Below, piece after piece: positions 2,374-45,007 of a stretch of DNA of 64,000 bases. The stretch comes from a bacterium BMS3Abin14. GTDB taxonomy: Bacteria > BMS3Abin14. Where the stretch lies: assembly GCA_002897695.1 (NCBI GenBank), contig BDTG01000046.1, positions 35,411 through 99,410 of the forward strand, written 5' to 3'. A program made the translations under genes and the position numbers. How positions within the stretch are numbered: the stretch's first letter is position 1; each line of letters begins with the position of its first letter. The notes under the pieces are model-generated. The model was not told where the DNA came from, searched no databases, and saw only the letters and a list, made by a program, of their open reading frames with translations.

Positions 2374-3249
2374 ATGGGGAAAACAGCGTTGGTACTTAGC
2401 GGCGGGGGCGCCAAGGGCGCCTTCCAGGTAGCAGCGGAAAAGTACGCCAGGGAGGAACACGGCTACCACTGGGACATCATCGCGGGCGTTTCGGTGGGAG
2501 CTCTCAACGGGGCCATGCTGGCCATGGAGAAATTCGACCAGCTCGATCAGCTCTGGAAAACCCTCTCGAACAGGTGCGTTTATACGGGGAAGTGGAACTT
2601 ATGGGCGGCCATCCGGCTCCTGTTTGGAGCCAAATCCATCTATGGCAACGAACCCCTTCGGGAGATCATCGAAAGAGAGGTCGAGCCTGACAAAATCAAG
2701 GCGGACCTGCGTGTGGGCGCGGTTTCCCTCAGCAACGGAAACTACACCATATACCGTAAGGACGATCCCAATCTCAAACATGCCATCCTGGCTTCCACTG
2801 TCATGCCTATTATCTGGCCCCCGCAGCATGTATCTGCAGAATGTCAGTACATGGTCGATGGGTCCCTGAGGAGGTTCAGCCCTATCGGTGATGTTCTTGA
2901 CACGGATCCTGACGAGGTGGTTATCATCAGCTGCAGGCCTCAAAAGCCCGGCATTATTGACAAACCGTTCAAAAACATCCTGGATATCGGGATCCGGACC
3001 TACGACATCGCATCCGACGAAATCGTCTCCGGGGACATCGCGGAGTTCCTGCACATTAACAGAAACGTCCGTGAGGCAGCCAACGGCGGGGTAACCCTTC
3101 ACAACGTCAAGGGCAAAGAGTACAGGGAGTACCGGTGCCGGATCATTGAACCCGTGGAGTCGCTTGGCAGCATGATGGACTTTTCCCACGATGCGATCAA
3201 ACGATCCATGAAAATCGGCAGGGAGAGGGCAAAAGAGATCCTCGGTTAA
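2374..3249 (+). CDS. Patatin-like phospholipase
   Basis: GGGAKG oxyanion motif, GVSVG nucleophile elbow, DGS in place of the usual DGG. Confidence 0.9.
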   Translation: MGKTALVLSGGGAKGAFQVAAEKYAREEHGYHWDIIAGVSVGALNGAMLAMEKFDQLDQLWKTLSNRCVYTGKWNLWAAIRLLFGAKSIYGNEPLREIIEREVEPDKIKADLRVGAVSLSNGNYTIYRKDDPNLKHAILASTVMPIIWPPQHVSAECQYMVDGSLRRFSPIGDVLDTDPDEVVIISCRPQKPGIIDKPFKNILDIGIRTYDIASDEIVSGDIAEFLHINRNVREAANGGVTLHNVKGKEYREYRCRIIEPVESLGSMMDFSHDAIKRSMKIGRERAKEILG

Positions 3250-3273: not shown

Positions 3274-5481
3274 TTGGAACATGCCGCAAATAATTTCCTG
3301 ACGGGGTTGAGCCAGCATGCTCTTCTCGTCTACATCTTTATCTTCGTCGTAGCTTTTTCAGAATCGTTCGCCTTTGTCGGCCTCTTCGTCCCCGGCGCCG
3401 TTTTCGCGGTTACCGCCGGGTTCCTCGCCGCGAGGGGGTTATTCGACTTCCAGGCCCTGGCCCTGGCCGGAGCGGCGGGCGCCGTTCTGGCAGACCTCGC
3501 CAGTTATTACCTGGCCCGTTTCTATGGATCGAGAATCACCGGAGGAAAACTCTACGTAAAATATCAACCATACCTGGAGAGGGGAAACAGGTTTATAGAA
3601 AAACACGGCGGCAAGAGCGTCTTCTTCGGACGATTTGTAGGCTTCATTCGCCCCGTAGTCCCATTCCTGGCCGGCCTGCTGAAGATGAATTCGGTCAAAT
3701 TCACCATCTACGCCACTGTGAGCGGGATCCTGTGGGCCTACCTCTATATAGGCGCCGGGTACCTTTTCGGTGAAAGCTGGAAGGTGGTGGAGGCCTGGAC
3801 AGGCAAATTAAGCATCCTTCTCCTTTTGATCGTTATTATCCTTTATTTGGCAAGGCACGTTGCCAGGCTGACGGGAAGGAAGTTGGCAGGTGCCGGAAGT
3901 TTTCTTGGTTCAGTTGTGGGTAGTGTGGCGGCTTCGCTTTCGGAAAATCCGTATGTTTCCGGTTTTTCGTCCCGCCATCCCTCGCTTGCCGGGTTTTTCA
4001 AACGACGATTTGACAAGAACAGTGCTTCGGGCATCCTTCTGACCACCGGTTTCCTGGTTACAGCCTTTTTTTTCTATCTCTTTATCGCCGTGGTTGAGGA
4101 CGTTGTTTTTCACGACCCGTTGACCAGCCTTGACAGGACCATCTTCTACGCCCTGCAGGGTGTCCATTCACGGTTCGCCGACGAGTTCTTCGTCTTTATC
4201 ACCACCATGGGAAGCTCGGTGCCGGTCATGATCTCCTTTCTGGTAATTCTGGGTATCCTGGCAGTCAATCGAAAAAGGCTGGAAGCATTTTTCTTCGCAT
4301 TCAACTTCATCGGTGGCGTGGTTTTTCTCATGGCCATGAAGTATCTCTTCCAGAGACCGCGCCCGGAAGCTATTTATCAGTTCTTCAGTGAAACGACTCC
4401 ATCCTTCCCAAGCGGGCACACTTTCATTGCCACGGCGGTACTGGGGCTCGGGCTCTATTTCCTGATCCGTTTCGTGAGGACCGGCGGCGCTAGAACCGCC
4501 GCAGTCTTTTCCTATCTCCTCTTCATCTTCCTTGTGGGTCTCAGCCGTATTTACCTTGGGGTCCACTGGTTCAGCGACGTGCTGGGGGCCTGTTTCGCCG
4601 GATTCGTCTGGATCAGCATGGTGATCACCTCCTATGAATATGTTATCAAGCGCGACAGTCCAAAAAACAGGGGCGCCGATAGATCAAGGTGGATTCCAGT
4701 GGCAGTTGCCGTTCTGGCCGTATTGGGCGTGGTGGGAAATGTGTCCTACTCCATCCGAAAGACCGGTTCTATTATCAGAAATGTCCAGGTGGTCCCCCCG
4801 GTGGTCAGGAAGTTTTCCGGTGAAATGGGGAAGGTTGTAAGGAAGGAGATCCCACCCTTTACCGAGACCATTCTCGGAAACCGGGCCGCACCTATCCAGG
4901 TGGTTTTTTCAGGGGGCCCGAAATGGACCGAAGGGATTCTCAGGGCTTCCGGCTTCGTCCGTAAAGATGAGATGCGAGTGAGGGACCTTTTCGACTACCT
5001 TGTCATGACCCTGAAACAACGGATCCGGGACCCGTTGCCATCCGTCCTTTACTACTACCGCAACCGCTCCCAGGGGGGCACGTGGGTAAAATCCGGACCG
5101 GACGGCACGTACCCTGAGATGGTCATCCGTTTATGGAACGCACAGACCACGGTGAACGGGTCCCCTGTCTCGGTTGCGACGGTTGATATTGAGAAGGGCC
5201 TCTACCGGGCCCTTCCGTGGCTGGAACTTCCAATCCCCGTCTGCAACGTCTCTCTGCCGGACGCCAGGAGGGAGTTTCGAGCCTACCTTGAGAAGAGGAA
5301 TGTGATATCCCCTATTCCCTCACCTCGGTCCTCTCCCCCGACGGGGAGAGGAAAAACCCGAACAGGGCTCGACATTGAGTCCCTGAAAATCATGGATTCC
5401 GTGGTGGGAAGGAATATCCTTCACCAGCAATACTACTGGGATGGGAAGATCCTGCTGGTGAGGCCCACCGGGGTTCCATGA
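3274..5481 (+). CDS. Bifunctional DedA / PAP2 phosphatase membrane protein with an LssY-like C-terminal domain
   Basis: DedA motifs (ESFAFVGLFVPG, FGRFVGFIRP), intact PAP2 motifs (RPRP, SFPSGH, SRIYLGVHWFSDV), soluble C-terminal domain. Confidence 0.85.
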   Translation: MEHAANNFLTGLSQHALLVYIFIFVVAFSESFAFVGLFVPGAVFAVTAGFLAARGLFDFQALALAGAAGAVLADLASYYLARFYGSRITGGKLYVKYQPYLERGNRFIEKHGGKSVFFGRFVGFIRPVVPFLAGLLKMNSVKFTIYATVSGILWAYLYIGAGYLFGESWKVVEAWTGKLSILLLLIVIILYLARHVARLTGRKLAGAGSFLGSVVGSVAASLSENPYVSGFSSRHPSLAGFFKRRFDKNSASGILLTTGFLVTAFFFYLFIAVVEDVVFHDPLTSLDRTIFYALQGVHSRFADEFFVFITTMGSSVPVMISFLVILGILAVNRKRLEAFFFAFNFIGGVVFLMAMKYLFQRPRPEAIYQFFSETTPSFPSGHTFIATAVLGLGLYFLIRFVRTGGARTAAVFSYLLFIFLVGLSRIYLGVHWFSDVLGACFAGFVWISMVITSYEYVIKRDSPKNRGADRSRWIPVAVAVLAVLGVVGNVSYSIRKTGSIIRNVQVVPPVVRKFSGEMGKVVRKEIPPFTETILGNRAAPIQVVFSGGPKWTEGILRASGFVRKDEMRVRDLFDYLVMTLKQRIRDPLPSVLYYYRNRSQGGTWVKSGPDGTYPEMVIRLWNAQTTVNGSPVSVATVDIEKGLYRALPWLELPIPVCNVSLPDARREFRAYLEKRNVISPIPSPRSSPPTGRGKTRTGLDIESLKIMDSVVGRNILHQQYYWDGKILLVRPTGVP
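5317..5353. repeat. REP-like palindrome (CCCTCACC...CCTCTCCC-type) inside the DedA-PAP2 CDS
   Basis: Perfect 10-bp stem TCCTCTCCCC-CGAC-GGGGAGAGGA (5329-5352), preceded by CCCTCACC. Confidence 0.65.
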
Positions 5482-5732
5482 GGCCGGCAAGCGAATGTTT
5501 GCGGCATATTTTCGGTCCGGTTCTGAAACACCCGTTCGATAATCGAACACCCCATGCGGGGACAAATCTGATCTTCGCTTCATTGCTGCATCGCGCAACA
5601 CACTGATAACATTAAAATATTTCCTTTTTACCATTCACCGCTCTTCAGTGGCCCGCCTCTTGCTCTGTTGACCATCGACAGTGGGCATCAGAACCACGAC
5701 CATATCAACCATATTTTCTCAGGAGGTGGGAC

Positions 5733-6110
5733 ATGAACGAGTATCAGAGCAGTGAAGTGGAGACAGACGAAAGCCGGGCCTGTCTCGTGCTGGAAGATGG
5801 AGGACGCCTGGAACTTACAGGCGATGAGATCGTCATCGGCCGGATGGATCCCCTGGAGGACATTCATCCGGATATAGATCTTGGCGCCCTGGGCGGCCTG
5901 GAAATGGGTGTCTCACGACGCCACGCCGCGATTTTCCTGGAGGACGAAAAATTCTCGCTGGAGGATCTTGGCAGCGCCAACGGAACTATTATCAATCGCG
6001 AGAGGGTCCAGGCCGGCGACAGGGTTACGCTCAACGAGGGGGACGTTATTTACCTGGGACGGTTTAAAGCCGTCTTCCAGGCATCCCACAACGATGGAGG
6101 TTCACTATGA
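5733..6110 (+). CDS. Stand-alone FHA-domain protein
   Basis: Canonical FHA residues IGR, VSRRHA and GSANGT. AGGAGG RBS. ATGA overlap with the next gene. Confidence 0.9.
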   Translation: MNEYQSSEVETDESRACLVLEDGGRLELTGDEIVIGRMDPLEDIHPDIDLGALGGLEMGVSRRHAAIFLEDEKFSLEDLGSANGTIINRERVQAGDRVTLNEGDVIYLGRFKAVFQASHNDGGSL

Positions 6111-8224
6111 AAGCCATAGGCAACAGGGTTGCCAGAATGTCGTTCGTCGGGTGCAGTGCGGCCCTCTGCGCAGCTTTACCCCTGGGGTTGATCCTGTCCC
6201 TCTCGCCCGGTGCATCCCTGCTGGCCGTACTTTTCGGTTTCATCGTCGGGGGCGCCCTCGCCGGTTTTCTAACGGCGTTCGATCTCCTGTGGACCCAGCG
6301 AAACGGTGAACTGGTCAATCGCGTGCTGCAAGCGGTGGCTGCGGGTTCCACGGGCGGCGCATTGGGCGCATGGCTGGGTCAGGTTCTGTTTCGTCTGTGG
6401 GGAAACCGTCTCGTGGCCGGCCCTGCCGCGGGAATTATCCTCCCTCTGTCTTTCGGAACGGCAGTCGGCTGGGGAGTGACAGGCCTTGGGGTCGGTCTGG
6501 CCATTACGCTTCCTTTCCAATCCGCCAGACCCCGTTGGCTCATCGCCGCCATCGGCGGAACGGTGGGCGGCGCGGTGGGTGGTCTGTTGATGCAGTTCCT
6601 GCAGCCGCTAATGGGTCCCGTAAGCCTGATCTTCGGCCTGCCCGTGTTTGGCGCGGCTGTTGGATTCGGCATTTCGTGGGCTGAAAGGGCGCTTTCATCC
6701 CTGCGCCTTCAGATACTCGAGGGTCCCGGGCGGGGATCGGAGTTTACCCTTGGGAAAAATACCCTCATAGGAAGCGAGGGGAAATGCACCGTCCGCCTGA
6801 CCGAAGCCGGGGTGGCGCCCAGGCATGCCCGCATTTTCCGCAAGGGGAGCGGGCTTTTCTTCGAAGATCTGGGCTCATCGGCAGGAAGCGTCCTGAACGA
6901 ACGCAAGGTGGCAGGCACGGCAGCCGGTGTTTCCCATGGCGACCTGATCACCATCGGCAAAACACTTCTGCGGGTCAATGCTCCCGGTCTGAAAACAGGC
7001 ATGGCTTCCACCGCCTCCCTGGCAGCACTCGCGGGGCTGTGCATCATGGGCCTTTTCCCGGCTCCATCTGCCGCTTCCGGGCTGAATGCAGCTTCGGCCG
7101 GCCGGCTCGCCCGCATCACCCAGGTTGACACGTCAAGATACCCTGTCGTGGATCTTTACGCCGTGCTTCCGGGCGACCTGAGGCCAGGAAGCATCCATGG
7201 CCTGGCCGTGCTGGAGGGAAAGAAGGAAACGTCTCTTCTCGAGGTGAGGGACCTTAAAAAGGGTTCCAGGGATGCCCCGCTCTCCATCTCCATCGTCCTT
7301 GACACGAGCTCAAGCATGCGAGGCCGGAAACTGGCCGAGGCCAAGGACGCCGTATACAGGTTTTCCAGGAGCATCCCCACTGAGGCCAGGATCAACCTCA
7401 TATCATTCAACGATGCCGTCCATGTAATATCGACCGGGCTTCCGGCGAGCCTCATCTACAGGAACGTCGCGGATCTCTCCGCCTCGGGACATACAGCGTT
7501 GTTCGACGGAATTGTCACGGGGTCCAACCTGATCCGCAACGAAGCCGGAAGAAAGGTGGTCATAACACTGACCGATGGCATGGCAAACAGAGGTGAAAGC
7601 TCCATGGGAGACGCGGTTGCAGCCGCTGAAAATGATGGGGTAAGCCTTCTTTTCGTAGGGCTTGGCCCGGATGCCAGACGTGTGAGATTGGGCGATATGG
7701 CCGCCAGAACAGGAGGAAGAGCGGTATTTACCTCGGATCCATCCGAGCTTTCAACCCTGTTTGAGACCTACGCTGCGGAACTTTCCAGGGAGGTGCTTGT
7801 CCGGTACCGTTCAACCATTCCGGACGCTCCTGTTGTGCCTGTGACACTACGCCTTACATCGGGGAACACTGAGTCCATTCTCAACGCACGCTACCTGTCT
7901 CCCCGGGCCTCCTTCATGGGGACATCCGGTACATCCTCCTGGGTTCTCTTTCTACTCGGATTTATCGGGCCGGTGGGGCTTCTCGCCGCTGGACGCCTTA
8001 CATCCTACAATATGGCCAAGGATCCGTTTCTTCTCGTGGAGGGTTCCTCCAGAGCGACCCGTCTCATCACCAGGGTCCTTTCCAACGATGGAATGACGGT
8101 TCCGATGTCCATCGGCGGCAAGACTGTTCTCGTCAACAACCAACCCGTAAAGGGCACCCGCACCCTAAGGAGTGGAGAGGCCCTGACCTGGGGCGACACA
8201 ACCATCCTGTTCAGAAAGGGTTGA
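6107..8224 (+). CDS. Multi-pass membrane protein with a degenerate FHA domain, a vWA domain and a C-terminal FHA-like tail
   Basis: Gly-rich TM region (about aa 10-190), FHA-like segment (GVAPRHARI, EDLGS), hydrophobic segment, vWA with intact MIDAS (DTSSS, HTALFD, LTDG), a further TM, then LVNNQPV...LRSGEALTWG. Confidence 0.8.
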   Translation: MKAIGNRVARMSFVGCSAALCAALPLGLILSLSPGASLLAVLFGFIVGGALAGFLTAFDLLWTQRNGELVNRVLQAVAAGSTGGALGAWLGQVLFRLWGNRLVAGPAAGIILPLSFGTAVGWGVTGLGVGLAITLPFQSARPRWLIAAIGGTVGGAVGGLLMQFLQPLMGPVSLIFGLPVFGAAVGFGISWAERALSSLRLQILEGPGRGSEFTLGKNTLIGSEGKCTVRLTEAGVAPRHARIFRKGSGLFFEDLGSSAGSVLNERKVAGTAAGVSHGDLITIGKTLLRVNAPGLKTGMASTASLAALAGLCIMGLFPAPSAASGLNAASAGRLARITQVDTSRYPVVDLYAVLPGDLRPGSIHGLAVLEGKKETSLLEVRDLKKGSRDAPLSISIVLDTSSSMRGRKLAEAKDAVYRFSRSIPTEARINLISFNDAVHVISTGLPASLIYRNVADLSASGHTALFDGIVTGSNLIRNEAGRKVVITLTDGMANRGESSMGDAVAAAENDGVSLLFVGLGPDARRVRLGDMAARTGGRAVFTSDPSELSTLFETYAAELSREVLVRYRSTIPDAPVVPVTLRLTSGNTESILNARYLSPRASFMGTSGTSSWVLFLLGFIGPVGLLAAGRLTSYNMAKDPFLLVEGSSRATRLITRVLSNDGMTVPMSIGGKTVLVNNQPVKGTRTLRSGEALTWGDTTILFRKG

Positions 8225-8359
8225 TGATTTGCTATAGACCATATTGCCGCTGGTTTGACCTCTTCTCCCAACTATGATAGCTAAAAAAGGGCTTTTTCCG
8301 ACGTGTACGGCGCCTCTCCGGTGCCGGCACGATTCCTTCTACAGTTGGGGTTGATGCCG

Positions 8360-8776
8360 ATGCCTATTGACGACAAAAACGACTTTTTCCCTACCCAGAC
8401 CATCCCCAAAAGGAGAGGAGCAGCCAAACCGGACCGGCCGGCTAAAGCATACATGGCTGTTCTCACCGGCGCCAAGGCAGGCAGTCAGTATCCATTGTTG
8501 AACGACAGGCAGACGGTCATCGGCCGATCCCCTGGTTGTGAAATACATATCGACGACCCCGACGCGTCCCGTCGGCACGCCGCCGTTCAACCCTTCGGAA
8601 ATGACTACTACCTCATGGACATGGGCAGCACAAACGGGACATTGGTTAACGGAAAGCCTGTTGAGAAGCGCATTCTCAAACACGGCGACAAGATCACCCT
8701 TGGCAAACAGGTCCTTCAATTCATCATCCTCGGCCCGGATGGGGGACCTTATGCCGGCGAGTTAATGAAAGGCTAG
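8360..8776 (+). CDS. Stand-alone FHA-domain protein with an N-terminal Thr-containing tail
   Basis: IGRS, ASRRHA, GSTNGT. Start ATG 8360 (or 8354); the ORF extends to 8303. Confidence 0.88.
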   Translation: MPIDDKNDFFPTQTIPKRRGAAKPDRPAKAYMAVLTGAKAGSQYPLLNDRQTVIGRSPGCEIHIDDPDASRRHAAVQPFGNDYYLMDMGSTNGTLVNGKPVEKRILKHGDKITLGKQVLQFIILGPDGGPYAGELMKG

Positions 8777-8798
8777 GAGCAAAAATCCTGCACGTCAT

Positions 8799-10058
8799 AT
8801 GAGCCATAAACTTGGGAAATATGTGGTCCTTGATGAGATTGGCCGGGGGGGTATGGCGACAGTATACCGCGCCAGGCAGGAATCTCTTGACCGGATCGTG
8901 GCCATCAAAGAGCTTAACCTTTCCAGCACAACTTCCGACATCAAGGCAAAAGAGAGGTTCCAGATGGAGGCCCGGGCAGCGGCATCACTCGACCATCCCA
9001 ATATCATTACCATCCACGACTTCTGGGAAAAGGGCAGCAAGGCATATATCGCCATGGAATACGTCGAGGGCCTGGAACTGAAGGAGGCCCTTGACCATCA
9101 CGGCGCTCTGGATTCTGTCCTCGCCGCCCAGGTCTGCATCCAGGTTTGTGCTGCACTAAGTTACGCACACGAACGGGGAATGATCCACAGGGATGTCAAG
9201 CCGGGCAACATCATGCTGTCGGCCCGTGGTGATGTCAAGCTGGCCGACTTCGGCATTGTCTTCATTGCGGGAACCGCTGATCTGACAACGACCGGACAGA
9301 TCATCGGCACCCCGTCCTATATGTCTCCCGAACAGATCAGGGGGGAGGACCCCGGTCCGGTGTCGGACATCTTCAGCCTCGGCATTGTCCTTTACGAATG
9401 CGTTACCGGCGCCAAGCCGTTCAGCGGCCCCAACGATGTAGCCCTGACCCACGCCATCATTCGGAAACGGCCGGTCAGACCCCGGCGCCTGAACTCCCGT
9501 ATTTCCAGAAGGCTGTCAGGCATTATCATGAAGTGCCTGCGAAAAAAATCCCGCCGGCGTTTTGCCACCATGGATGAACTGGCAGCCGCCCTTCAGCGCA
9601 CCCTTCCGAGGAGGGCTCCCGATGCCGCCAGGGCTCTGGCCAGGCTTGTCACCGGGATACAGCGTGAGGGAGAGGCCGGCGCCACCGTCCCAATGTCGCC
9701 ATCGAAGGCCATGCTCTCCGGGAGGAGTATCTTCATACCCGCAGTGGTCACGATCGTGCTGGCCGCTGTGTTTCTCCTGGCAGTTCTGTCCGGCTCCCTC
9801 AGGGAAGCAACGCATTTCGACAGCGGTGGAGCTTTGGGAACCGTTCCCCTCATGATTGTCGCCTATCCATGGGCAGAGGTCACCGTGGACGGCAGCACGC
9901 TCGGCTATACTCCATCGGCCAGACCCTTTCAGGTTTCCCCGGGACGCCACACCCTGGTCCTGACAAACACCAGGTTCGGTTCCCGAACCTTCAAACTCGA
10001 CATTACCCGGGAAAAGCCCATAAGCATCAGGGTTGATTTTCTGCAGGAGAAAAAATGA
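8799..10058 (+). CDS. Hanks-type Ser/Thr protein kinase with a TM helix and C-terminal PEGA-like domain
   Basis: GRGGMATV, VAIKE, HRDVKPGN, DFG and GTPSYMSPEQ all intact. TM helix, then YPWAEVTVDG..LGYTP...PGRHTL. Confidence 0.93.
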   Translation: MSHKLGKYVVLDEIGRGGMATVYRARQESLDRIVAIKELNLSSTTSDIKAKERFQMEARAAASLDHPNIITIHDFWEKGSKAYIAMEYVEGLELKEALDHHGALDSVLAAQVCIQVCAALSYAHERGMIHRDVKPGNIMLSARGDVKLADFGIVFIAGTADLTTTGQIIGTPSYMSPEQIRGEDPGPVSDIFSLGIVLYECVTGAKPFSGPNDVALTHAIIRKRPVRPRRLNSRISRRLSGIIMKCLRKKSRRRFATMDELAAALQRTLPRRAPDAARALARLVTGIQREGEAGATVPMSPSKAMLSGRSIFIPAVVTIVLAAVFLLAVLSGSLREATHFDSGGALGTVPLMIVAYPWAEVTVDGSTLGYTPSARPFQVSPGRHTLVLTNTRFGSRTFKLDITREKPISIRVDFLQEKK

Positions 10059-10954
10059 CTTCCGCGGAACAGGTCGTCAGATCGGTGACATTTACCCTTG
10101 TTGCAATGTTTATCCTCTCCGTATTTCCCCCGAGCCCGCATGCCGCGTCGATCCGGCATACTGTTGCGAAGGGGGAATCGCTGGCCGGGATAGCACTGCA
10201 ATTTTACGGGGACAGGTCACATTTTAGGGAGATCGCTCTGTATAACGGGATCGAAAATCCCGCCTTGGTTCGGCCGTCCATGAAGATCCGGCTGCCTTTT
10301 TCAGAAATGGTCACCATGCAGCGTGGGGAAAGCATAAGCGTGCTGGCTAAAAAGGCATGGGGAAATCCCAAACTTTTCCCCATCCTCGCAGTGGCCAACG
10401 GAATTCGCAACCCACAATCGGTTTCGGCCGGGACCAGGCTGAGAATTCCTGTTATGGTCCCGTACAAACTGGGCAGAGGGGAGAGCCTCTCCACGGTAGC
10501 GAAGAACTTTTACGGCAACCCCAAAGCGTACACCAGTATCGCGCTGGCAAGCGGCATTGCCCGACCCGACCGGGTTCCAGTCGGTACGGCCCTGAGAATA
10601 CCGTTGATCCTGATACGTTCTTCGGGCCGAAGGAACGCTGGAATCGCAGTTGCCCATCCCGGTTCCAAGATCGCGAAAGTTGCAGCCTCAGGGCCGAAAG
10701 AGGCCCAGAGGGCCTTCAGGAGAGGAGAGTTTGAAAAAGCCAGGGACCTGATGGAGAGCGGCCTTCCCATGCTCAGGGGAAAAGATCGGGCAAAAACCCT
10801 TCGCCTGCTGGCCTCATGTTATTATGCGTTCGGGGAAAGGAAAAAGGCCATAATGGCGCTAAGGGAATCGTATGTCCTCGATCCAGGATTCGTCCCGGAC
10901 CCGGCCATGGTAAACCCGGAGATGATGGCCCTTTACGGCAAGGCCAGGAAATAA
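10055..10954 (+). CDS. Secreted protein with three LysM repeats and a C-terminal TPR-like domain
   Basis: Signal-peptide-like N-terminus. Three repeats of the form (V/K)xxGESL...(Y/W)G...IAxxxGI..P.......LRIP. TPR-like helices LLASCYYAFGERKKA. ATGA overlap with the kinase. Confidence 0.85.
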   Translation: MTSAEQVVRSVTFTLVAMFILSVFPPSPHAASIRHTVAKGESLAGIALQFYGDRSHFREIALYNGIENPALVRPSMKIRLPFSEMVTMQRGESISVLAKKAWGNPKLFPILAVANGIRNPQSVSAGTRLRIPVMVPYKLGRGESLSTVAKNFYGNPKAYTSIALASGIARPDRVPVGTALRIPLILIRSSGRRNAGIAVAHPGSKIAKVAASGPKEAQRAFRRGEFEKARDLMESGLPMLRGKDRAKTLRLLASCYYAFGERKKAIMALRESYVLDPGFVPDPAMVNPEMMALYGKARK

Positions 10955-10994
10955 AAACGGGTCATTTCTCACGCCCGCGAGAAACATGATTAAT

Positions 10995-11862: not shown

Positions 11863-12981
11863 TTATATCTTATCACGGCGAGAGGCATTGACCCCTGTCA
11901 ATAAATCCTCATACTTCCCGGCCATTGTCCGCCATGAGAGCCATTCGAGGGAAGGGGGAGCAATTTCCCTGACAGCCAGTGGGTCCAAGCACATCATATG
12001 AAGCCGGCGGGCCAGTTCGTCTATTTCCTTCTCTACGTTGTCCGGCATGGATGGATATCGGAACAATTCCGGGAAGAACTCCGCGTAGGCAAGCCGTTCC
12101 GGGACCATGGGTATACACCCCGCGGCCACGGCCTCAAGTACAGCTAATCCCTGGAAATCGTGGAGGGCGGTGGAAACTACCACATCGCTTGTCTGGAGAA
12201 TCCTGCGATAATCGTCACCGTCCTTCGCAAAGCCCCATGTGGCAATATGGTCCCCCAGCCGATCTCGCGCCTCATCGAATATGGGTGGACAGTCCCTGAA
12301 TCTTTGCCCCACCACGTGCACCCTGAACGGCGCCTCCAGGTCCGCGAGCCTGAAAAGGACCGCGAAGAACCGTTCCGGCGCCTTATCATGTTCCCACCGG
12401 TGATTCCACACCAGCGTCAGTGGGACCGAACGGGCCGGCTGCCGGTGCTCCACAAAACAATGACCTGGAAGGGGGACCGGGAGAATTGCAGAACGGGATG
12501 CTAAATCCTCGACAATACCGGGAGGCACGCAGTCCGGGAATCCCTTGAGAAGCCTCACCGCTCCCTCAATCATGGTGTCATGGTTGAAGGCAGAATTAAA
12601 GACCACCCGGTCAGCCGCAAGCGCTGTAAAAAGATTGGTGAGCTTGTAGTTCTGCCCTTCTTTTCTCGCCAGGCGTTCCGGATAGGCAAACTGGTTCTCG
12701 TGAAAATAGGCCACCGTGGGGATGCCCGCCAGCTCCGGCACGAGTCCCCGCAATTCAGCCAGATTCGTCATGGAGGTGGCGATAATTCTATCGTACCCTG
12801 CCAAGAGGATTTCCCGTGATCCGTACGCCCATGAGAGTGCGTTCCCGCGGCTGCGCCAGGCAAACATCCTGGGAGGAAGGGTCAGAACCGTCCACTCATG
12901 AGCGGAAAGGTGACGGACCAGCCCTTCCCGCCACATCCTGTGGCTGGAAGCATCGTACGCCGACAGAAGGAGAATTTTCAA
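11863..12981 (-). CDS. DUF3524 / GT-B glycosyltransferase (GTDC1/QTMAN-like family)
   Basis: N-terminal SHRMW..GL...LPPRMFAWRSRG, YFHENQFAYP, WNHRWEHDK, and GT4-like HDFQGLAVLEA. TTG start. Confidence 0.8.
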   Translation of the reverse strand: MKILLLSAYDASSHRMWREGLVRHLSAHEWTVLTLPPRMFAWRSRGNALSWAYGSREILLAGYDRIIATSMTNLAELRGLVPELAGIPTVAYFHENQFAYPERLARKEGQNYKLTNLFTALAADRVVFNSAFNHDTMIEGAVRLLKGFPDCVPPGIVEDLASRSAILPVPLPGHCFVEHRQPARSVPLTLVWNHRWEHDKAPERFFAVLFRLADLEAPFRVHVVGQRFRDCPPIFDEARDRLGDHIATWGFAKDGDDYRRILQTSDVVVSTALHDFQGLAVLEAVAAGCIPMVPERLAYAEFFPELFRYPSMPDNVEKEIDELARRLHMMCLDPLAVREIAPPSLEWLSWRTMAGKYEDLLTGVNASRRDKI

Positions 12982-26889: not shown

Positions 26890-28371
26890 TTACATGAGAG
26901 ACAGGACCGACAGCCTCGCAGCCTCCAGAACGCCGCCCGGCAGAATTCCCAGAATGAGAGTGCCGGTCAATGCCAGAGCTATTCCGGCCCATAGGATCAG
27001 TGAGCGGGGGGAGACGGCAAACTCGCCCTCGGGCTCTCTCATATACATGAGGACAATAATGCGGAGGTAGTAGAACGCCGCTACAACACTGTTAAGAAGT
27101 CCGATCACGACAAGGGTGTAATACCCCCCCTGTATACCGGCATAAAACACATACAGCTTGGCAGCGAATCCTGCCGTGGGGGGAATCCCCGCCAGGGAAA
27201 GCATGAAGATCATCATGGCCAGCGCAGCGCCCGGCGCCCGTCTGGACAGCCCCTGAAAGTCGTCCAGGTTCTCTCCCGTCATATTCTCACGTTTGAGATA
27301 TATAAGGATCGCAAAAGCGCCGATATTCATGAAAGTGTACGACAGAAGGTAAAACATGACGGAAGATATGGCACGATCAGGCCGGCCGTTCACCGAAGCA
27401 ACCACTCCAATAAGGATGTATCCAACATGGGCTATTGAGGAATAGGCCAGCATCCGTTTTACGTTTTTTTGTCTCAGCGCAGTGAGGTTTCCCAGGGTCA
27501 TTGTCAATACACTGAGGACAACGACGAGGACCTCCCAGTCCCCCTTCATCTGGGGGAGCGCTTCCATTAAAATTCGGATAAGCGCCGCCAACCCGGCTGC
27601 CTTGGGACCGGCCGACATAAAGCCTGTCACCGGGGTGGGAGCGCCCTGATATACATCGGGGGTCCACATGTGGAATGGAACAACGGATATTTTGAAGGAA
27701 AAACCAACCAGCACCATGAACATCCCGGCCAGGAGAGGAACGTCTTTGAGTAACGCCGGATGGGAGTTGATGGCGTCGGCGATTTTATCAAAATGCGTGC
27801 TGCCGGTGACACCGTAAATATAGGACATTCCAAAAAGCGTGATGCAGGTGGCAACAGAGCCCAGAATGAAATATTTCAGCCCGGCCTCGTTTGATTTAAG
27901 ATCAGTCCTGAAAAATCCGGCCAGAATATAGAGGGAAATAGAGAGTATCTCCAGGCCCAGGAAGATGGTGATAAGTTCCCTTCCCACGGCCATTACCATC
28001 ATTCCGACCGTAGCCAGAAGGAGAAGGGCATAATATTCCGCGTGGTCCCCGGTCCCGCCTTCCTTCATGAAGCGGAGCGAAAGCGTCATGGTAAGAATCA
28101 GCCCGAACAGAAATATCACCTTGAAGAAGGTTGCGTAGGGATCAAGAACAATCGAATTTCCGAAAGTCGAGACGTTAAGACCGGCCTCGGACAGGGTCAC
28201 CGCAAGCGCCACAACAGCCCCGGCCATACCGATAGTAAAGGATGCGCTATGCTTCTTCGTCCGGGTGACCAGTTCCCAAAGAACGACCAGGAATGCGGTC
28301 GCCGTGAGTATCAACTCCGGAGCAATGACCCTGAAATCCGGGATAAGAATAGTCAAACTCTGCATGGGCAC
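26890..28371 (-). CDS. nuoN: NADH-quinone oxidoreductase subunit N
   Basis: EAGLKYF, FKISVVPFHMWTPDVYQGAP, KRMLAYSSIAH. Confidence 0.95.
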   Translation of the reverse strand: MPMQSLTILIPDFRVIAPELILTATAFLVVLWELVTRTKKHSASFTIGMAGAVVALAVTLSEAGLNVSTFGNSIVLDPYATFFKVIFLFGLILTMTLSLRFMKEGGTGDHAEYYALLLLATVGMMVMAVGRELITIFLGLEILSISLYILAGFFRTDLKSNEAGLKYFILGSVATCITLFGMSYIYGVTGSTHFDKIADAINSHPALLKDVPLLAGMFMVLVGFSFKISVVPFHMWTPDVYQGAPTPVTGFMSAGPKAAGLAALIRILMEALPQMKGDWEVLVVVLSVLTMTLGNLTALRQKNVKRMLAYSSIAHVGYILIGVVASVNGRPDRAISSVMFYLLSYTFMNIGAFAILIYLKRENMTGENLDDFQGLSRRAPGAALAMMIFMLSLAGIPPTAGFAAKLYVFYAGIQGGYYTLVVIGLLNSVVAAFYYLRIIVLMYMREPEGEFAVSPRSLILWAGIALALTGTLILGILPGGVLEAARLSVLSLM

Positions 28372-28377
28372 TTTTCC

Positions 28378-30021
28378 TTAATTCAACCCCTCAACCGGGG
28401 GGAGAGCGTTAACGCCGTTGAACGTAATGGAATGCCGATCCACATTCACAGCCAACTTGACCGCGGAAGAATCCACATCCAGGCCGGCGGATTGCGCCTT
28501 TTTCAGCTCGATCCGTGCGGATTTGGCTGATTCCACCCGCAAGACCACCTGTTTCGCCGCCGGTTCAATAATTTTCAGAAACGGTTTGGGATAGATCCCC
28601 ACCCAGAACATCAGAACGACCAGGGGCGCCAGAGTAGCTATCTCACGCATGTTGATATCCAAAAGTTTGCGGTTCTCCTCGTGGGTGATCTCTCCGAACA
28701 TTATCTTCTTGTACATGTGAAGCATATATACCGCCCCGAGGATAATGCCGGTTGACGCCAGGACGCCAAAGACAAACAATCCGGATTTAAATGCCCCGAG
28801 AAGAATCAGAAATTCACCGACAAAACCGTTGAGCCCTGGAAGCCCAATGGAGGAGAAAGTGGCAATTCCAAGAATTGCCGCATAAACAGGCATCACCGAG
28901 GCCAGACCACCGAAATCATCCAGAAGCCGGGTATGCCTTCGTTCATAGATAATCCCGACGAGAAGGAACAGAGCTCCGGTGGAGAGCCCATGGTTTATCA
29001 TCTGGAGGATACCGCCCTGCAGACCCTGGAAAGAGAGGGTAAAGATTCCCAGCATTACAAAACCCAGATGGCTCACGGATGAATAGGCGACAAGTTTCTT
29101 GGCATCAGGCTGCACCCAGGCCACCAGAGCACCGTAAATGATTCCGATGACTGAAAGGGCCAGAACCACCGGAATCGCCCTGATGGCGGCGTCGGGCAGG
29201 ATTGGGAGGGAAAACCGGACAAAACCGTACGTTCCCATTTTCAGCAGAACACCCGCAAGGATCACTGAACCTGCGGTGGGCGCCTCAACATGTGCGTCGG
29301 GAAGCCACGTGTGGAAGGGGAAAAGAGGAACCTTGATGGCGAACCCGAGGAATAGCCCCCAGAAGGCCCACATCTGGACATTCCTCGGGATATTGGACGT
29401 GAGCAGCCTGATGACATCGAAGGTATAGACCCCGGTGGCCGAATGGTATGAAAAATATATGAGCAGAAAACCTATAAGCATGAAGAGACTGCCGATCAGG
29501 GTGTAAAGGAAGAACTTCACCGCTGCGTAAATTCGGCGCTGCCCACCCCATACGCCGATAATGAGCGCCATGGGGATCAGCTCAATTTCCCAGAAAACAT
29601 AGAAAAGGACGAGATCGAGAGCAAAGAACACACCCAGCATGGCGGACTGAAGAACCAGGAAAGCAACCATATATTCTTTGACACGGTCCTTGATGGCCGA
29701 GAAAGAGGATAAAATGGCGATCACACCGAGGAGCGTGGTCAGCAGGGCCAGAAGAAGGCTGATCCCGTCCACTCCCATGATGTAGCTGATACCGAGCCCC
29801 GGAATCCACCTGGCCCTCTCCACAAACTGGAACCCGGATTGCCCGACGTTGTATTGGGCAAGGAGCACCATGGAAACCAGGAAATCCGCGACGGCGATTA
29901 CCAGCGCTGTATTCCGGATGAGGTTAACCTTTTTACCCGGCACCAGAAGGGCAAGCAGCAATGCGCCAACGGCCGGCAGGTAAACTATGACTGATAATAT
30001 TGGGAAGGTCATATGTTCCAT
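28378..30021 (-). CDS. nuoM: NADH-quinone oxidoreductase subunit M
   Basis: FYVFWE, KVPLFPFHTWLPDAHVEAP, KKLVAYSSVSH; ~45-aa C-terminal extension. Confidence 0.95.
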   Translation of the reverse strand: MEHMTFPILSVIVYLPAVGALLLALLVPGKKVNLIRNTALVIAVADFLVSMVLLAQYNVGQSGFQFVERARWIPGLGISYIMGVDGISLLLALLTTLLGVIAILSSFSAIKDRVKEYMVAFLVLQSAMLGVFFALDLVLFYVFWEIELIPMALIIGVWGGQRRIYAAVKFFLYTLIGSLFMLIGFLLIYFSYHSATGVYTFDVIRLLTSNIPRNVQMWAFWGLFLGFAIKVPLFPFHTWLPDAHVEAPTAGSVILAGVLLKMGTYGFVRFSLPILPDAAIRAIPVVLALSVIGIIYGALVAWVQPDAKKLVAYSSVSHLGFVMLGIFTLSFQGLQGGILQMINHGLSTGALFLLVGIIYERRHTRLLDDFGGLASVMPVYAAILGIATFSSIGLPGLNGFVGEFLILLGAFKSGLFVFGVLASTGIILGAVYMLHMYKKIMFGEITHEENRKLLDINMREIATLAPLVVLMFWVGIYPKPFLKIIEPAAKQVVLRVESAKSARIELKKAQSAGLDVDSSAVKLAVNVDRHSITFNGVNALPPVEGLN

Positions 30022-30120
30022 GTAGCCCTTTCTCTACCCGACGATGCCAGCCTGATTTGTTCCTGGAAAATCAGCGCAGCAACCATCCTGCCGGGCCGAC
30101 ACCGGCGAAAGAAACCGTAA

Positions 30121-32052
30121 TTACACCAAAAAAGTCCAGAAAAGCACCACGACCAAACCAACGGCCATGGCCAGAGCATAGTTTTGAACAAAACCGGTCT
30201 GAAGCCTGGCAAGAAATCCGCCGGCCCGATCCGCGCCATTGGCAATTCCATGAAGCGTTCCGTCGATGACTCCACCATCGAACCCTGTCCACAGAAGGTT
30301 CCCAAGGCGATTAAGCGGCCTGGTGATGATCATCTCGTAGAACTCGTCCACCCACCACTTATGGTAAAAAAGGTCGTAAAGAAAACTGTAGTCTTTCCTG
30401 ATCTCCTCGGCAATCTGGGGTTTGCGCAGAATAATGGCCAGAGCAAGCCAGATGCCCCCGACAGCCACCACGACCGAGACCCCCATCAGACCGAGTTCCG
30501 AAGCGACGGAATGGACGGCCTCGGCCATCTCCCCTGCATGCTCGGTAACGGCGCCGAATACGGGGCCAAGCCAACTGTGCAGGAGATGCCATTTCTCCAC
30601 AATCGGGATCCCGGCAAACCCGCCGACAGTCGAAAGAAATGCAAGGATAACCAGCGGTACAGTCATGACCGATGGGGACTCATGTGCGTGTTTAGCCACT
30701 TCCGGGTCCAGCCTCGACTCACCGTGAAACACCAGGTAGACCAGCCGGAACATGTAAAAAGCCGTCATAAAAGCGGTAACCACACCGGCAAACCACAGGA
30801 GGAAACCACCTCCGTACTTTGAATTGAAGGCGGCGTTGAGGATCTCGTCCTTCGACATGAAGCCCGCCAATGGAGGGATGCCGGAAATGGCCAGGGACGC
30901 CACGACAAATGTCTTATAGGTTGTGGGCATGATCTTTCTCAACCCGCCCATCTTTCGTATGTCCAGCTCCCCGGAAAGGCCATGCATGACGCTGCCCGCA
31001 CACATGAACAACAGAGCCTTGAAAAATGCGTGGGTCATGAGATGAAAGATCGCAGTCGTGTATGCTCCAACACCGACCGCCAGGAACATGTATCCCAACT
31101 GGCTTATCGTGGAGTAGGCCAGGACGCGTTTGAAATCGTTCTGAACAAGTGCAATGGTGGCAGCGAAAAAGGCGGTCAATGCCCCAATTGATGCAATCAC
31201 CATCATGGTTGGGGGGGCCATTTCAAAAAGAACATGACTGCGGCAGACCATATAGACCCCGGCGGTCACCATCGTGGCGGCATGGATGAGGGCGGAAACC
31301 GGTGTCGGGCCCTCCATGGCGTCGGGCAGCCAGATATGGAGAGGCAGCTGGGCGGATTTTCCGATCGCGCCGAGAAAGAGCAGCATGGTGATCAGGATGA
31401 CCATCGGGTCTCCCTGGCTGAACACCTGGTGGGCTCGGCCGAAAACCTCGGCGTATGACAGGGAACCGAAGTGGATGGCGATAAGAAGCATTCCAATCAT
31501 GAAGCCGAAATCGCCCACGCGGTTGACGATGAAAGCCTTCTTCCCCGCCGCCGAGGCGCTCTCCTTTTTGAACCAGAAGCCAATGAGCAGATAGGAACAG
31601 AGCCCCACCCCTTCCCAACCGACGAACATGACCAGGAAGCTGTTGCCGAGCACAAGCATGAGCATGGCGAAAACAAAAAGATTCAGATACAGAAAATAAC
31701 GGGCCACACCCTCATCGTGTTCCATATAGCCGATACTGTAGACATGGATGAGGAATCCGACCCCCGTGATCACCAGGATCATCACGGATGAAAGTGGATC
31801 AAGCAGGAACCCGATGGGGACTGAAAAGTCGCCGGAGCCGATCCACTGGAACAGGTTGATATTGAAAACCCTGGAGCCGGCCTCCATTCCAGTCAATCCT
31901 GAAATGGCCACCACCGAGGCCAGGAACGCCGAGGCCACCGAGCCGCATGCCAGTATCCCCACCGCTGACCTTGACAGGCGCCGGCGGAAGACGAGGTTGG
32001 CGATCACCGCCAGGAGAGGGAAGAGTGGTACCAGGACTACCGCTTCTGTCAT
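30121..32052 (-). CDS. nuoL: NADH-quinone oxidoreductase subunit L
   Basis: GWEGVGLCSYLLIGFW, KSAQLPLHIWLPDAMEGPTPVSALIHAATMV, C-terminal lateral helix region. Confidence 0.95.
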   Translation of the reverse strand: MTEAVVLVPLFPLLAVIANLVFRRRLSRSAVGILACGSVASAFLASVVAISGLTGMEAGSRVFNINLFQWIGSGDFSVPIGFLLDPLSSVMILVITGVGFLIHVYSIGYMEHDEGVARYFLYLNLFVFAMLMLVLGNSFLVMFVGWEGVGLCSYLLIGFWFKKESASAAGKKAFIVNRVGDFGFMIGMLLIAIHFGSLSYAEVFGRAHQVFSQGDPMVILITMLLFLGAIGKSAQLPLHIWLPDAMEGPTPVSALIHAATMVTAGVYMVCRSHVLFEMAPPTMMVIASIGALTAFFAATIALVQNDFKRVLAYSTISQLGYMFLAVGVGAYTTAIFHLMTHAFFKALLFMCAGSVMHGLSGELDIRKMGGLRKIMPTTYKTFVVASLAISGIPPLAGFMSKDEILNAAFNSKYGGGFLLWFAGVVTAFMTAFYMFRLVYLVFHGESRLDPEVAKHAHESPSVMTVPLVILAFLSTVGGFAGIPIVEKWHLLHSWLGPVFGAVTEHAGEMAEAVHSVASELGLMGVSVVVAVGGIWLALAIILRKPQIAEEIRKDYSFLYDLFYHKWWVDEFYEMIITRPLNRLGNLLWTGFDGGVIDGTLHGIANGADRAGGFLARLQTGFVQNYALAMAVGLVVVLFWTFLV

Positions 32053-32063
32053 CGTCTCTTCTC

Positions 32064-32366
32064 CTAGCCCTTCATCAGGTTGATTTCATCAACGTTGACG
32101 GTCTCACGATTGCGGAACAGGGCCACGAGAATCGCGAGACCCACGGCCGCCTCCGCGGCTGCCACCGTCATCACAAAAAACACAAATACCTGTCCCGCCA
32201 TATTGTGTATATAGTGGGAAAAGGCGATCAGGTTGATATTCACGGCATTAAGCATCAGCTCAATGGACAGAAGAATTATGATGATGTTCCTCCGGAGGAG
32301 TACCCCCAGAAGACCGATAACAAACAGAATGGCCCCGAGGACCAGATAGTGCGTAAGGGTAATCAT
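32064..32366 (-). CDS. nuoK: NADH-quinone oxidoreductase subunit K
   Basis: [22 protein letters not shown]. Confidence 0.95.
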
Positions 32367-32875
32367 TCCGCGCTCTCCCTTCGAGCCAGGACCACAGCCC
32401 CGAAAATCGCCACCAACAGAACCAGGGATGCCAGTTCAAACGGAAACAGAAACGTTGTGTAAAGGCTCGCGCCCACAGCTTCGGTATTTCCCCCGAAGAC
32501 GTTGCCGACAAGTTTGGCGACCGGACGGGAAAATGAACCCTGAACCGCAAGAATGACAAGTTCAAGCGCAAGCGCGATGCCGGCGACCATGGCAAAGAAT
32601 CGCTGGCGGTGTATTATCCTCAGCTCCCTGGTGCCGGAAAGATTCAGCAGGGTAACGACAAAAAGGTAAAGGACCATAATAGCCCCGGTGTAGACCAGAA
32701 TCTGAACGGCAGCCAGAAATTCGGCGTCCAGCAGGACAAAAAGACCCGCGATATGGAAGAAACACGGGATGAGGAATATCACCGAATGGACGGGGTTGGA
32801 ACGGGAAACCGACAGCACGGCCGTCACTACCGTAACCACCGCAAAATAGTAAAACAACAATGAATACAGATTCAT
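32363..32875 (-). CDS. nuoJ: NADH-quinone oxidoreductase subunit J
   Basis: [33 protein letters not shown]. Confidence 0.93.
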
Positions 32876-32885
32876 CAGCCGCTCC

Positions 32886-33332: not shown

Positions 33333-33343
33333 TGCGATCTCTC

Positions 33344-38171: not shown

Positions 38172-38177
38172 GTCCCG

Positions 38178-39992: not shown

Positions 39993-40021
39993 CTGCCGCT
40001 ATATCCTCCTGAAGAGTGGAA

Positions 40022-41040: not shown

Positions 41041-41053
41041 CTTTCATTCCTCC

Positions 41054-45003: not shown

Positions 45004-45007
45004 AACG

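Follow-up and report, generated by a model that had tools for sequence, protein, structure and literature searches.

A Hanks-type kinase/FHA/vWA gene cluster with a conserved sigma-54-type control region in the uncultured bacterium BMS3Abin14

Introduction

Five co-oriented genes, here called g1 to g5, lie at positions 5733-10954 of a 64,000-nucleotide stretch of DNA (the window) from the bacterium BMS3Abin14 (GenBank assembly GCA_002897695.1, contig BDTG01000046.1, positions 35,411 to 99,410, forward strand). They encode a small FHA protein, a membrane protein that combines FHA folds with a vWA domain, a second FHA protein, a Hanks-type Ser/Thr kinase and an exported LysM/TPR-like protein. 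We propose, with moderate confidence, that the cluster forms an envelope-sensing kinase/FHA phospho-docking module that would span the inner membrane and feed a sigma-54 activator, and we regard it as one lineage's variant of a broader, uncharacterised locus for kinase/FHA/vWA/sigma-54 signalling that also occurs in Nitrospirota. A literature search of limited scope found no paper describing this cluster, its membrane FHA/vWA protein or its candidate enhancer site. A first reading made from the letters of the window and their translations (the sequence-only reading) had likened the genes to PASTA-kinase/FhaA systems; that analogy is fair, but the TerY-P triad, the ArnA/ArnB pair, the PpkA/Fha1 pathway and GarA are closer.

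The TerY-P triad, as outlined in PMC11090510 and PMC4978471 (after Anantharaman et al. 2012), consists of a TerY-like vWA protein, a PP2C phosphatase and a Ser/Thr kinase, was proposed to act as a phosphorylation-dependent switch and is reported to be a stand-alone defence system. ArnA/ArnB of Sulfolobus pairs a Zn-ribbon-FHA protein with a vWA/beta-sandwich protein, with phosphorylation by ArnC/ArnD (PMC6509490, PMC12852372). The threonine-phosphorylation pathway of the T6SS (type VI secretion system) is built from PpkA, PppA, Fha1 and a periplasmic TagR or RtkS (PMC10482370), and the operon DRA0331-0334 of Deinococcus radiodurans encodes a vWA protein, a membrane kinase, an FHA protein and an FHA-PP2C protein and is linked to the DNA-damage response (bioRxiv 10.64898/2026.01.23.701218).

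The cluster described here belongs to none of the families tested: each has at least one defining feature that the cluster lacks, and it is therefore filed under none. Like the TerY-P triad, it couples the genes of a vWA protein and a Hanks kinase, and in Nitrospirota PP2C is coupled to them too; but the window has neither PP2C nor a soluble TerY-like vWA protein, its vWA domain being the ectodomain of a membrane protein, and g4 ends in a transmembrane helix and a PEGA-like domain where the TerY-P kinase ends in a Zn ribbon/OB fold. FHA proteins and a sigma-54 activator are moreover integral here, unlike in the triad, and there is no link to DNA-processing or defence genes. None of the TerY models of PADLOC was matched in the window, and the soluble vWA protein of Nitrospirota reaches 22.7 bits against the vWA-TerF-like model, whose cut-off is 29.4.

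The likeness to ArnA/ArnB extends to the Zn-ribbon-FHA nature of the g1 orthologues, to the ArnB-type fold of the g2 ectodomain (8s05, 5a8j), to the adjacent soluble vWA and Zn-ribbon-FHA genes of Nitrospirota loci, and to a proposed logic of phosphorylation-dependent FHA docking on a Thr-rich C-terminus. The present cluster, however, is bacterial and has no link to an archaellum, the g1 protein of the window lacks the Zn ribbon, and the output is proposed to run through sigma-54. Because the vWA domain of g2 is predicted to lie outside the cytoplasm, it cannot, unlike ArnB, be a direct FHA target. With the T6SS pathway the cluster would share the activation of a membrane Hanks kinase from the periplasm, aided by an accessory periplasmic protein, and the reading of the mark by an FHA protein. 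PpkA carries a periplasmic vWA domain, whereas here vWA domain and kinase are on separate proteins, PppA and T6SS genes are missing, and the likely output is a transcription activator rather than the assembly of a machine. TagH scores are 38-51 bits against a cut-off of 120, and no T6SS family was found in 39 open reading frames of the window or in the related loci.

From the GarA/OdhI and PknB/FhaA/FhaB/PstP systems of Actinobacteria the cluster has counterparts to the layout of g3, the PknB-like catalytic domain and a peptidoglycan-binding module tied to the kinase; it differs in that LysM is on a separate protein where PASTA is on the kinase itself, in lacking PP2C, RodA and PBP, in its diderm host and in scores below the equivalog cut-offs. 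The Deinococcus operon likewise joins a vWA protein, a transmembrane Hanks kinase and a stand-alone FHA protein, but it includes PP2C and has no membrane FHA-vWA protein, LysM, PEGA or sigma-54 elements. FHA-type enhancer-binding proteins are NtrC-type AAA+ proteins in which an FHA domain replaces the receiver domain, which implies control by Ser/Thr kinases; in work attributed to Jelsbak and colleagues in 2005, cited in PMC12288465, they are reportedly an established class in Myxococcus xanthus. By this general description the activator of the relatives is of the same type, but here it goes with a single conserved kinase/FHA/vWA cluster that has a recognisable, presumably cognate enhancer site and promoter, and it is not linked in this window.

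Results

A sigma-54 promoter and a candidate enhancer precede g1

The region ahead of g1 contains a sigma-54 type promoter and an enhancer-like palindrome (Table 1); the sequence-only reading overlooked both, as well as the FHA-sigma54 activator gene that adjoins the cluster in relatives. The -24/-12 element TGGCCCGCCTCTTGCT sits 69 nt ahead of the g1 ATG at 5733, and an AGGAGG ribosome-binding site is present. A promoter of this type occupies the same place in all nine loci of the window's own clade that were examined first and in two further ones (L043 and L044), that is, in every own-clade locus with upstream DNA. In Nitrospirota, the homologous operon has TGGCAY-N5-NTGCA upstream of its first gene in 14 of 14 loci, and in a third lineage (L041) the sigma-54 promoter TGGCACCCCCCTTGCC is found ahead of the vWA gene. 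The chance of such a match is ~1.5% (P ~0.015) per own-clade locus and 0.7% per Nitrospirota locus; these loci are related and hence not independent, and their flanking intergenic DNA is otherwise divergent.

The palindrome GTTCGATAATCGAAC is probably the binding site of an FHA-sigma54 activator. It takes the form cGTTCGA-N3/5-CGAACa, 112-114 nt upstream of the -24 element (114 nt in the window), in the window and in the own-clade loci recovered by the strict scan, and degenerate copies occupy about the same place in the other own-clade loci. Nitrospirota loci have an enhancer-like site TATTCGAAAATCGAATA and a second copy 133-157 nt upstream, and the core TTCGA-N3-TCGAA is common to the own clade and all 14 Nitrospirota loci. 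The pair of upstream activating sequence and promoter occurs once in the window and essentially once per related locus; a search for other regulon members turned up no second pair in the window and practically none at the related loci. In one Nitrospirota locus (L028:5526-5663) a further enhancer-like site, TTTACGAAAATCGAATCC, stands ~1.5 kb upstream of the main pair and is followed 122 nt downstream by a sigma-54-like element; this extra site may mark an additional regulon member.

Most own-clade relatives have tandem repeats of ~7 nt between the enhancer site and the -24 element, among them (CTACTTT)x5, (GTACTTT)x3 and (CACTCTA)x3; they are located at L044:5460-5500, at ~2590-2635 in L005, at ~8735-8775 in L013 and at the same relative place in L003, L006 and L011. 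The window has only T-tracts at this position, and heptamer-like tandem repeats also fill other intergenic DNA in the genomes of relatives. Such repeats may give intrinsic bending in place of IHF, or may bind another factor.

A second conserved element, TTTGACCTC-N6-CAAMTRTGRTAGC, is found between g2 and g3 in 11 of 11 own-clade loci examined, often after a GC-rich hairpin, and takes the form TTTGACCTC-N6-CAACTATGATAGC in the window. A consensus scan for sigma-70 promoters and terminators was uninformative and missed it. The sequence-only reading had described five co-oriented genes with two ATGA couplings, and the coordinates, the orientation and both overlaps (g1/g2 at 6107-6110, g4/g5 at 10055-10058) are as it gave them. 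Its five-gene set nevertheless needs dividing: because a conserved sigma-70-like element precedes g3, the genes most likely form two transcription units, g1-g2 being sigma-54 dependent and g3-g5 having a sigma-70-like promoter, with starts predicted near 5675 and near 8290. This two-unit layout mirrors the two operons of Nitrospirota.

An FHA-type sigma-54 activator adjoins the cluster in relatives

The activator gene of the relatives encodes a protein with FHA, AAA+ and HTH_8 domains. Activators from three lineages are 49-50% identical over their full length, and almost every Nitrospirota locus, like five own-clade species, has the gene next to the cluster. It was not found at the L043, L044 and L003 loci, nor at L005, for which 2.6 kb of upstream sequence could be searched. 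Among the loci without an adjacent activator, the window, L043, L005 and L003 keep a clear palindrome, and L044 has a degenerate copy. The sigma-54 promoter, the enhancer palindrome and the adjacent activator of the relatives together make transcription the most likely output of the module.

Conservation of the cluster and its Nitrospirota version

Close homologues of g2 number 46, all metagenomic. A profile search of 1.84 billion representatives gave thousands of partial vWA or FHA matches, with the full g2 architecture in only ~13 clusters. At the level of species genomes, the family shows 50-88% identity within the own clade and ~30% identity over the full length with Nitrospirota. The own-clade records are labelled only 'bacterium', 'Proteobacteria/Pseudomonadota bacterium' or 'Deltaproteobacteria bacterium', and the window sequence is present in marine, marine-sediment and hydrothermal-vent metagenome runs; a search for RNA runs gave only contig-level ones of DNA or of unknown type.

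The gene set co-occurs in ~13 related genomes, and the g1-g5 order is kept in ~13 own-clade loci; it is found in all that are long enough to show it, bar two exceptions. The order was seen in L001, L004, L005, L006, L043 and L044, and four further loci (L014, L008, L009 and L013) are cut by contig ends. One of the exceptions, L003, is identical to L010 and comes from a complete genome (CP070698.1): at L003:12726-13400 the kinase gene ends after residue 182 and the LysM gene is gone, while g1, g2 and g3 are intact, which is due either to decay in the sensor half or to a fault in the assembly. On both flanks, synteny with the window is kept in L043, so that the cluster is taken to be a vertically inherited chromosomal locus. 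These findings bear out the view of the sequence-only reading that the genes form a conserved, unnamed Ser/Thr-kinase/FHA module with extracytoplasmic parts.

The Nitrospirota loci all have one layout in common. One operon encodes PP2C, a soluble vWA protein, a Zn-ribbon-FHA protein, a g2-like protein and a first kinase; beyond it come the divergent FHA-sigma54 activator gene and then genes for an FHA protein, PP2C and a second kinase. Of the two kinases, the second is closer to g4 (47-50% identity), and the FHA protein ahead of it corresponds to g3. L041 has the order activator, vWA, FHA, g2-like protein, kinase, and L042 encodes a Zn-ribbon-FHA protein, PP2C and a g2-like protein. Gene by gene, the window cluster reads as a reduced fusion of both Nitrospirota units, in which two PP2C genes, the soluble vWA gene and the first kinase gene would have been lost and a PEGA-like ectodomain and g5 gained; neither PEGA nor g5 was found in the Nitrospirota loci examined. 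A hidden Markov model (HMM) search found no PP2C within 10 kb of any own-clade locus, and tblastn together with a six-frame HMM search found none in the window. The absence of PP2C from the window, pointed out in the sequence-only reading, is thus real, but since the Nitrospirota locus has PP2C, it is a lineage-specific loss from the neighbourhood and not a design principle.

The membrane FHA/vWA protein

The order of the parts of g2 was derived from hydropathy and an AlphaFold model (predicted local distance difference test score, pLDDT, 73). The label 'membrane-vWA' in the sequence-only reading was right in that g2 is a membrane protein with a vWA domain; it missed an FHA fold and the degenerate remnant of a second one. 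Because both FHA-type parts must face the ATP side of the membrane, the vWA domain is predicted to lie outside the cytoplasm, between the two transmembrane helices. Its metal-ion-dependent adhesion site (MIDAS; D399-x-S401-x-S403, T463 and D490) is intact, as the sequence-only reading held, and invariant in 16 homologues. Foldseek matched the ectodomain to ITIH1, ArnB (8s05, 5a8j) and 4fx5, which are vWA-plus-beta-sandwich proteins. For the N-terminal six-helix region, no Pfam family was found with sequences from three lineages. The first FHA fold has GS, PRH and SAG where GR, SxxH and NG would be canonical. Alignment with Nitrospirota homologues shows that the second has an internal deletion of ~27 residues, which takes in the GR and H motifs, and that a terminal Zn ribbon has been lost as well. 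The C-terminal tail is the best conserved part of the protein, with six invariant Thr residues including a TT pair.

Kinase and LysM/TPR-like partner

The kinase has all the catalytic motifs of an intact enzyme, as had been stated: G-loop (15-20), K37, HRDVKPGN (130-137), DFG (150-152) and SPE (176-178). A TTT run lies in its activation loop. The extracytoplasmic PEGA-like domain is a more qualified assignment. The C-terminal 88 residues of the window copy stay below the gathering threshold of PEGA (PF08308; 18.2 against 20.8 bits), but PEGA is the only family matched by all seven orthologous C-termini (best E 9e-5). A PDB sequence search with the PEGA-like profile gave no match, and the domain is missing from the Nitrospirota kinases examined. 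Against the PASTA-kinase family NF033483, the catalytic domain alone is aligned (residues 6-279), with 326 bits and a cut-off of 450.

That g5 is an exported LysM-TPR protein holds up: on the isolated segment, Pfam finds three LysM modules and a TPR-like domain. In the AlphaFold model (pLDDT 84), an N-terminal helix leads into three beta-alpha-alpha-beta modules, and a TPR-like domain of five helices comes after a disordered linker. Members of the family are confined to the own clade: the search gave ~49 clusters, the sampled members of which are in own-clade loci, with no comparable homologue beyond this set. The 4-nt overlap of g4 and g5 is kept in every orthologous locus in which both genes are complete.

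Small FHA proteins

Both small proteins match Pfam FHA (E 1e-16 for g1, 2e-22 for g3) and keep the canonical phosphothreonine-binding motifs GR, SRRH and S(T/A)NG, which in g1 read GR, SRRH and SANGT. Most g1 orthologues begin MNxCPxC...C..C, a CxxC...CxxC Zn ribbon that is missing from g1 of the window and of its nearest relative, L043; the cysteine pairs that mark the Zn-ribbon-FHA class are present in most orthologues and in all Nitrospirota homologues. The window's g1 is an orthologue of the Zn-ribbon-FHA proteins that has lost its Zn ribbon.

The g3 coding sequence probably starts at ATG 8354 or 8360 rather than at the GTG at 8303 where the open reading frame opens. Its N-terminal tail has a Thr residue (PTQT, nt 8390-8401; T-x-x-I/M in the clade) ~40 residues ahead of the FHA core, which is invariant in the own clade and also present in Nitrospirota. 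The nearest solved relatives are GarA and OdhI, and the layout is of the GarA/OdhI kind, though the score against NCBIfam OdhI (69 bits, cut-off 200) does not reach the equivalog level. Given the tail Thr, the FHA domain and these nearest relatives, g3 has by analogy the layout of a phospho-switch, whose FHA domain can in principle bind its own phosphorylated tail.

Surrounding DNA

The remainder of the window is ordinary diderm chromosome with an anaerobe-like set of redox genes. It encodes a TolC-like OEP, a TetR regulator, a patatin, a VTT/PAP2/LssY fusion, a thioesterase, a QTMAN-like glycosyltransferase, FBP aldolase, RlmL, a methyl-accepting chemotaxis protein, PAS-HisKA_2 kinases, a complex I operon, multihaem cytochromes, Rex, Mfd and SurA. 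An Rfam scan of the window found no RNA family. The fusion gene directly upstream of the cluster (3274-5481; 735 aa) joins VTT (DedA-like), PAP2 phosphatase and LssY C-terminal parts and is kept at this place in L043, not in more distant relatives. Between it and the TetR gene lies a patatin-like phospholipase gene (2374-3249) that is missing from the otherwise syntenic L043, which indicates a recent gain in the window or a loss in L043. The glycosyltransferase gene at 11863-12981 has the N-terminal domain of tRNA-queuosine alpha-mannosyltransferase (QTMAN_N, E 7e-56) and is also found near the cluster in L004. The complex I region (35391-45084) has two NuoF-like/NuoG-like pairs (38178-39992 with 35391-38171, and 43726-45084 with 41054-43729), with a TPR protein gene (34387-35385) between nuoG and nuoH. 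Over the minus-strand nuoL/M/N-type genes at 28001-34000, the + strand has a strong positive AT skew of 0.23-0.25, which is probably explained by the T-rich codons of hydrophobic proteins.

Table 1. Positions of the genes, protein domains and regulatory elements of the cluster in the window
Feature	Position	Strand	Description
Enhancer-like palindrome GTTCGATAATCGAAC	5534..5548	+	sole zero-mismatch match to CCGTTCGANNNNCGAAC in 64 kb; candidate FHA-sigma54 activator site
Sigma-54 type -24/-12 promoter TGGCCCGCCTCTTGCT	5649..5664	+	sole 1-mismatch match to TGGCACN5TTGCW in 64 kb
g1	5733..6110	+	125 aa, small cytoplasmic FHA protein
g2	6107..8224	+	705-aa membrane protein, FHA folds and vWA
g2, six glycine-rich N-terminal helices	6125-6694	+	hydropathy/AlphaFold model
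g2, FHA fold 1	6704-6979 (residues 200-291)	+	Pfam FHA/YscD-like
g2, transmembrane helix 1	6998-7075	+	hydropathy
g2, predicted extracytoplasmic beta-sandwich and vWA	7112-7897 (residues 336-597)	+	Pfam VWA; MIDAS DTSSS at 7301-7315
g2, transmembrane helix 2	7928-8002	+	hydropathy
g2, C-terminal remnant of second FHA	8024-8221 (65-residue tail)	+	alignment with Nitrospirota homologues
Sigma-70-like element TTTGACCTC-N6-CAACTATGATAGC	8254..8281	+	between g2 and g3; single window match, none in shuffles
g3	8354..8776 (ORF from GTG 8303)	+	GarA/OdhI-like FHA protein
g4	8799..10058	+	419 aa, Hanks-type Ser/Thr kinase, transmembrane helix, PEGA-like end
g4, kinase domain	8820-9608	+	Pkinase E 5e-58
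g4, transmembrane helix (one)	9723-9791	+	hydropathy
g4, extracytoplasmic PEGA-like domain	9837-10046	+	sub-threshold PEGA match; 7/7 orthologues
g5	10055..10954	+	299 aa, exported 3xLysM and TPR-like protein
g5, signal or anchor helix	10055-10147	+	AlphaFold model
g5, three LysM modules	10157-10606	+	Pfam
g5, TPR-like five-helix domain	10697-10951	+	TPR_14, 24.1 bits, cut-off 23.5; disordered linker precedes
Terminator-like hairpin	10963..10986	.	10-pair stem, between g5 and convergent thioesterase gene

Discussion

It is, in our judgement, likely that the cluster is a kinase/FHA module in which sigma-54 and an enhancer control g1 and g2. The composite reading, in which an inner-membrane, envelope-sensing module passes its signal to a sigma-54 activator, could work as follows. 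The kinase g4 and its partner g5 would be made constitutively and form the sensor, with the LysM modules holding g5 on peptidoglycan. An envelope cue, possibly read jointly with the MIDAS site of g2, would activate g4, which would autophosphorylate on the TTT run of its activation loop and phosphorylate the tail Thr of g3 and probably also the Thr-rich cytoplasmic C-terminus of g2. The resulting phosphothreonines would be docking sites read by FHA domains. Docking of the activator through its own FHA domain would switch its ATPase, and from TTCGA-N3-TCGAA it would drive open complex formation at the g1 promoter; the induced g1 and g2 proteins would then feed back by offering docking sites or competing for them. 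Dephosphorylation would have to come from an unlinked phosphatase. The sequence-only reading had called the arrangement a phosphorelay, which is the wrong term for Hanks-type phosphorylation that is read by docking domains. A peptidoglycan-sensing input is a doubtful part of the scheme.

Several findings weigh against this composite reading. Neither the activator gene nor PP2C is in the window, and the case for the output regulator comes from relatives and the cis element. The FHA domain of the activator has GT/GS where GR is canonical, and the Arg, Ser and Asn residues that canonically bind phosphothreonine are absent from the FHA folds of g2 itself, which may be reader or docking platform alike. 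In L041 the palindrome differs, with two copies of CTCCGGAATCCGGAG at 138 and 159 nt upstream of the sigma-54 promoter (L041:1790-1830), though the activator of that locus is 50% identical to the others. Finally, L011 has no g3, and in L003 g5 is missing altogether, as is the C-terminal half of g4; from these gaps, the parts of the module are not strictly interdependent.

Of the other explanations, the one that survives best, although we think it unlikely, is that of the sequence-only reading, by which the LysM-TPR protein would sense the state of the cell wall or foreign cells and physically engage the PEGA-like and vWA domains, and the small cytoplasmic FHA proteins would be post-translational end effectors without any transcriptional arm. 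The ectodomains of g2, g4 and g5 are all predicted on the same side of the membrane, the overlap of g4 and g5 is conserved, PEGA and g5 occur together and in this clade only, and g3 resembles GarA and OdhI, which act through enzyme binding. All this would agree with such a scheme, but it takes no account of the enhancer site, the linked activator and the conserved promoter of sigma-54 type, and the Nitrospirota homologues have the same core without PEGA or a LysM partner. Nothing in the analysis bears on the sensing of foreign cells.

Somewhat less likely again is a regulator of envelope growth or division of the PknB/FhaA/FhaB(FipA) type, in which the kinase would read peptidoglycan through its LysM partner as others do through PASTA, and the FHA proteins would be scaffolds for wall-synthesis or division proteins. 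LysM domains bind peptidoglycan, and g5 has LysM matches in Pfam; g2 is membrane-anchored like FhaB. The NCBIfam matches that speak for this reading, to FhaB/FipA in the case of g2 and g3 and to the catalytic domains of PASTA kinases in that of g4, are partial and lie far under the cut-offs (55-74 against 125 bits and 326 against 450, respectively). No gene for PASTA, RodA, PBP, FtsW or PP2C was found in any own-clade locus examined (the window itself was searched for PASTA, PP2C, RodA and PBP), and the flanking genes, which have metabolic or redox roles, vary from one genome to another.

An anti-phage or conflict module akin to the TerY-P triad is very improbable. The ancestral-looking Nitrospirota locus does have PP2C, a soluble vWA protein and a kinase in a row, a definition and a defence role have been described for TerY-P (PMC11090510), and the kinase domain of g4 matches kinase-based PADLOC models. 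These PADLOC matches are to the generic kinase domain only, with g1, g2, g3 and g5 unmatched, and on that ground the defence reading was rejected; besides, the locus is chromosomal and syntenic between relatives, with no nucleases, helicases, mobile elements or defence genes nearby, the proteins are membrane-bound or periplasmic, and neither a Zn ribbon nor an OB fold is present at the C-terminus of the kinase. The faintest chance of all is left to an accessory regulator of a secretion system or pilus with core genes elsewhere (T6SS threonine phosphorylation, type III YscD-like or Tad), which we rejected even though the FHA folds match the YscD cytoplasmic-domain model and, weakly, TagH, the PpkA/Fha1 pathway draws on domains of the same kinds (PMC10482370) and the weakest g2 homologue listed is a vWA domain fused to TadB: the TagH and YscD scores are far under the family cut-offs, no secretion or pilus core gene is present in the 64-kb window (39 open reading frames scanned) or within 10 kb of ~40 related loci, as the sequence-only reading had noted for the window, and no locus maps onto a T6SS, T7SS or Tad accessory cluster.

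Returning to the kinase-to-sigma-54 reading, we put forward tentatively, and with less confidence than in the composite itself, that the locus represents an undescribed design that extends from an uncultured marine lineage to Nitrospirota. A Hanks kinase and a membrane FHA/vWA receptor would here control a sigma-54 enhancer-binding protein by phosphothreonine-FHA docking and not by His-Asp phosphotransfer, with an enhancer site of its own (TTCGA-N3-TCGAA) and autoregulation, and this clade would have re-tooled the design with a PEGA ectodomain and a peptidoglycan-bound LysM/TPR co-sensor while shedding the linked PP2Cs.

Every organism concerned is an uncultured environmental bacterium, and the impact is accordingly mechanistic rather than applied. 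Ser/Thr kinases are common in bacteria, and for most of them the input and the route to gene expression are not established. The cluster is a compact, conserved case in which a whole path can be proposed from sequence, from an envelope kinase with a peptidoglycan-binding partner through FHA docking to a sigma-54 activator and its enhancer and promoter, and for this reason the circuit from kinase to sigma-54 is directly testable in a heterologous host. It would also illustrate how such modules evolve, from a core with two PP2Cs and two kinases in Nitrospirota to a stripped version with new ectodomains in this clade.

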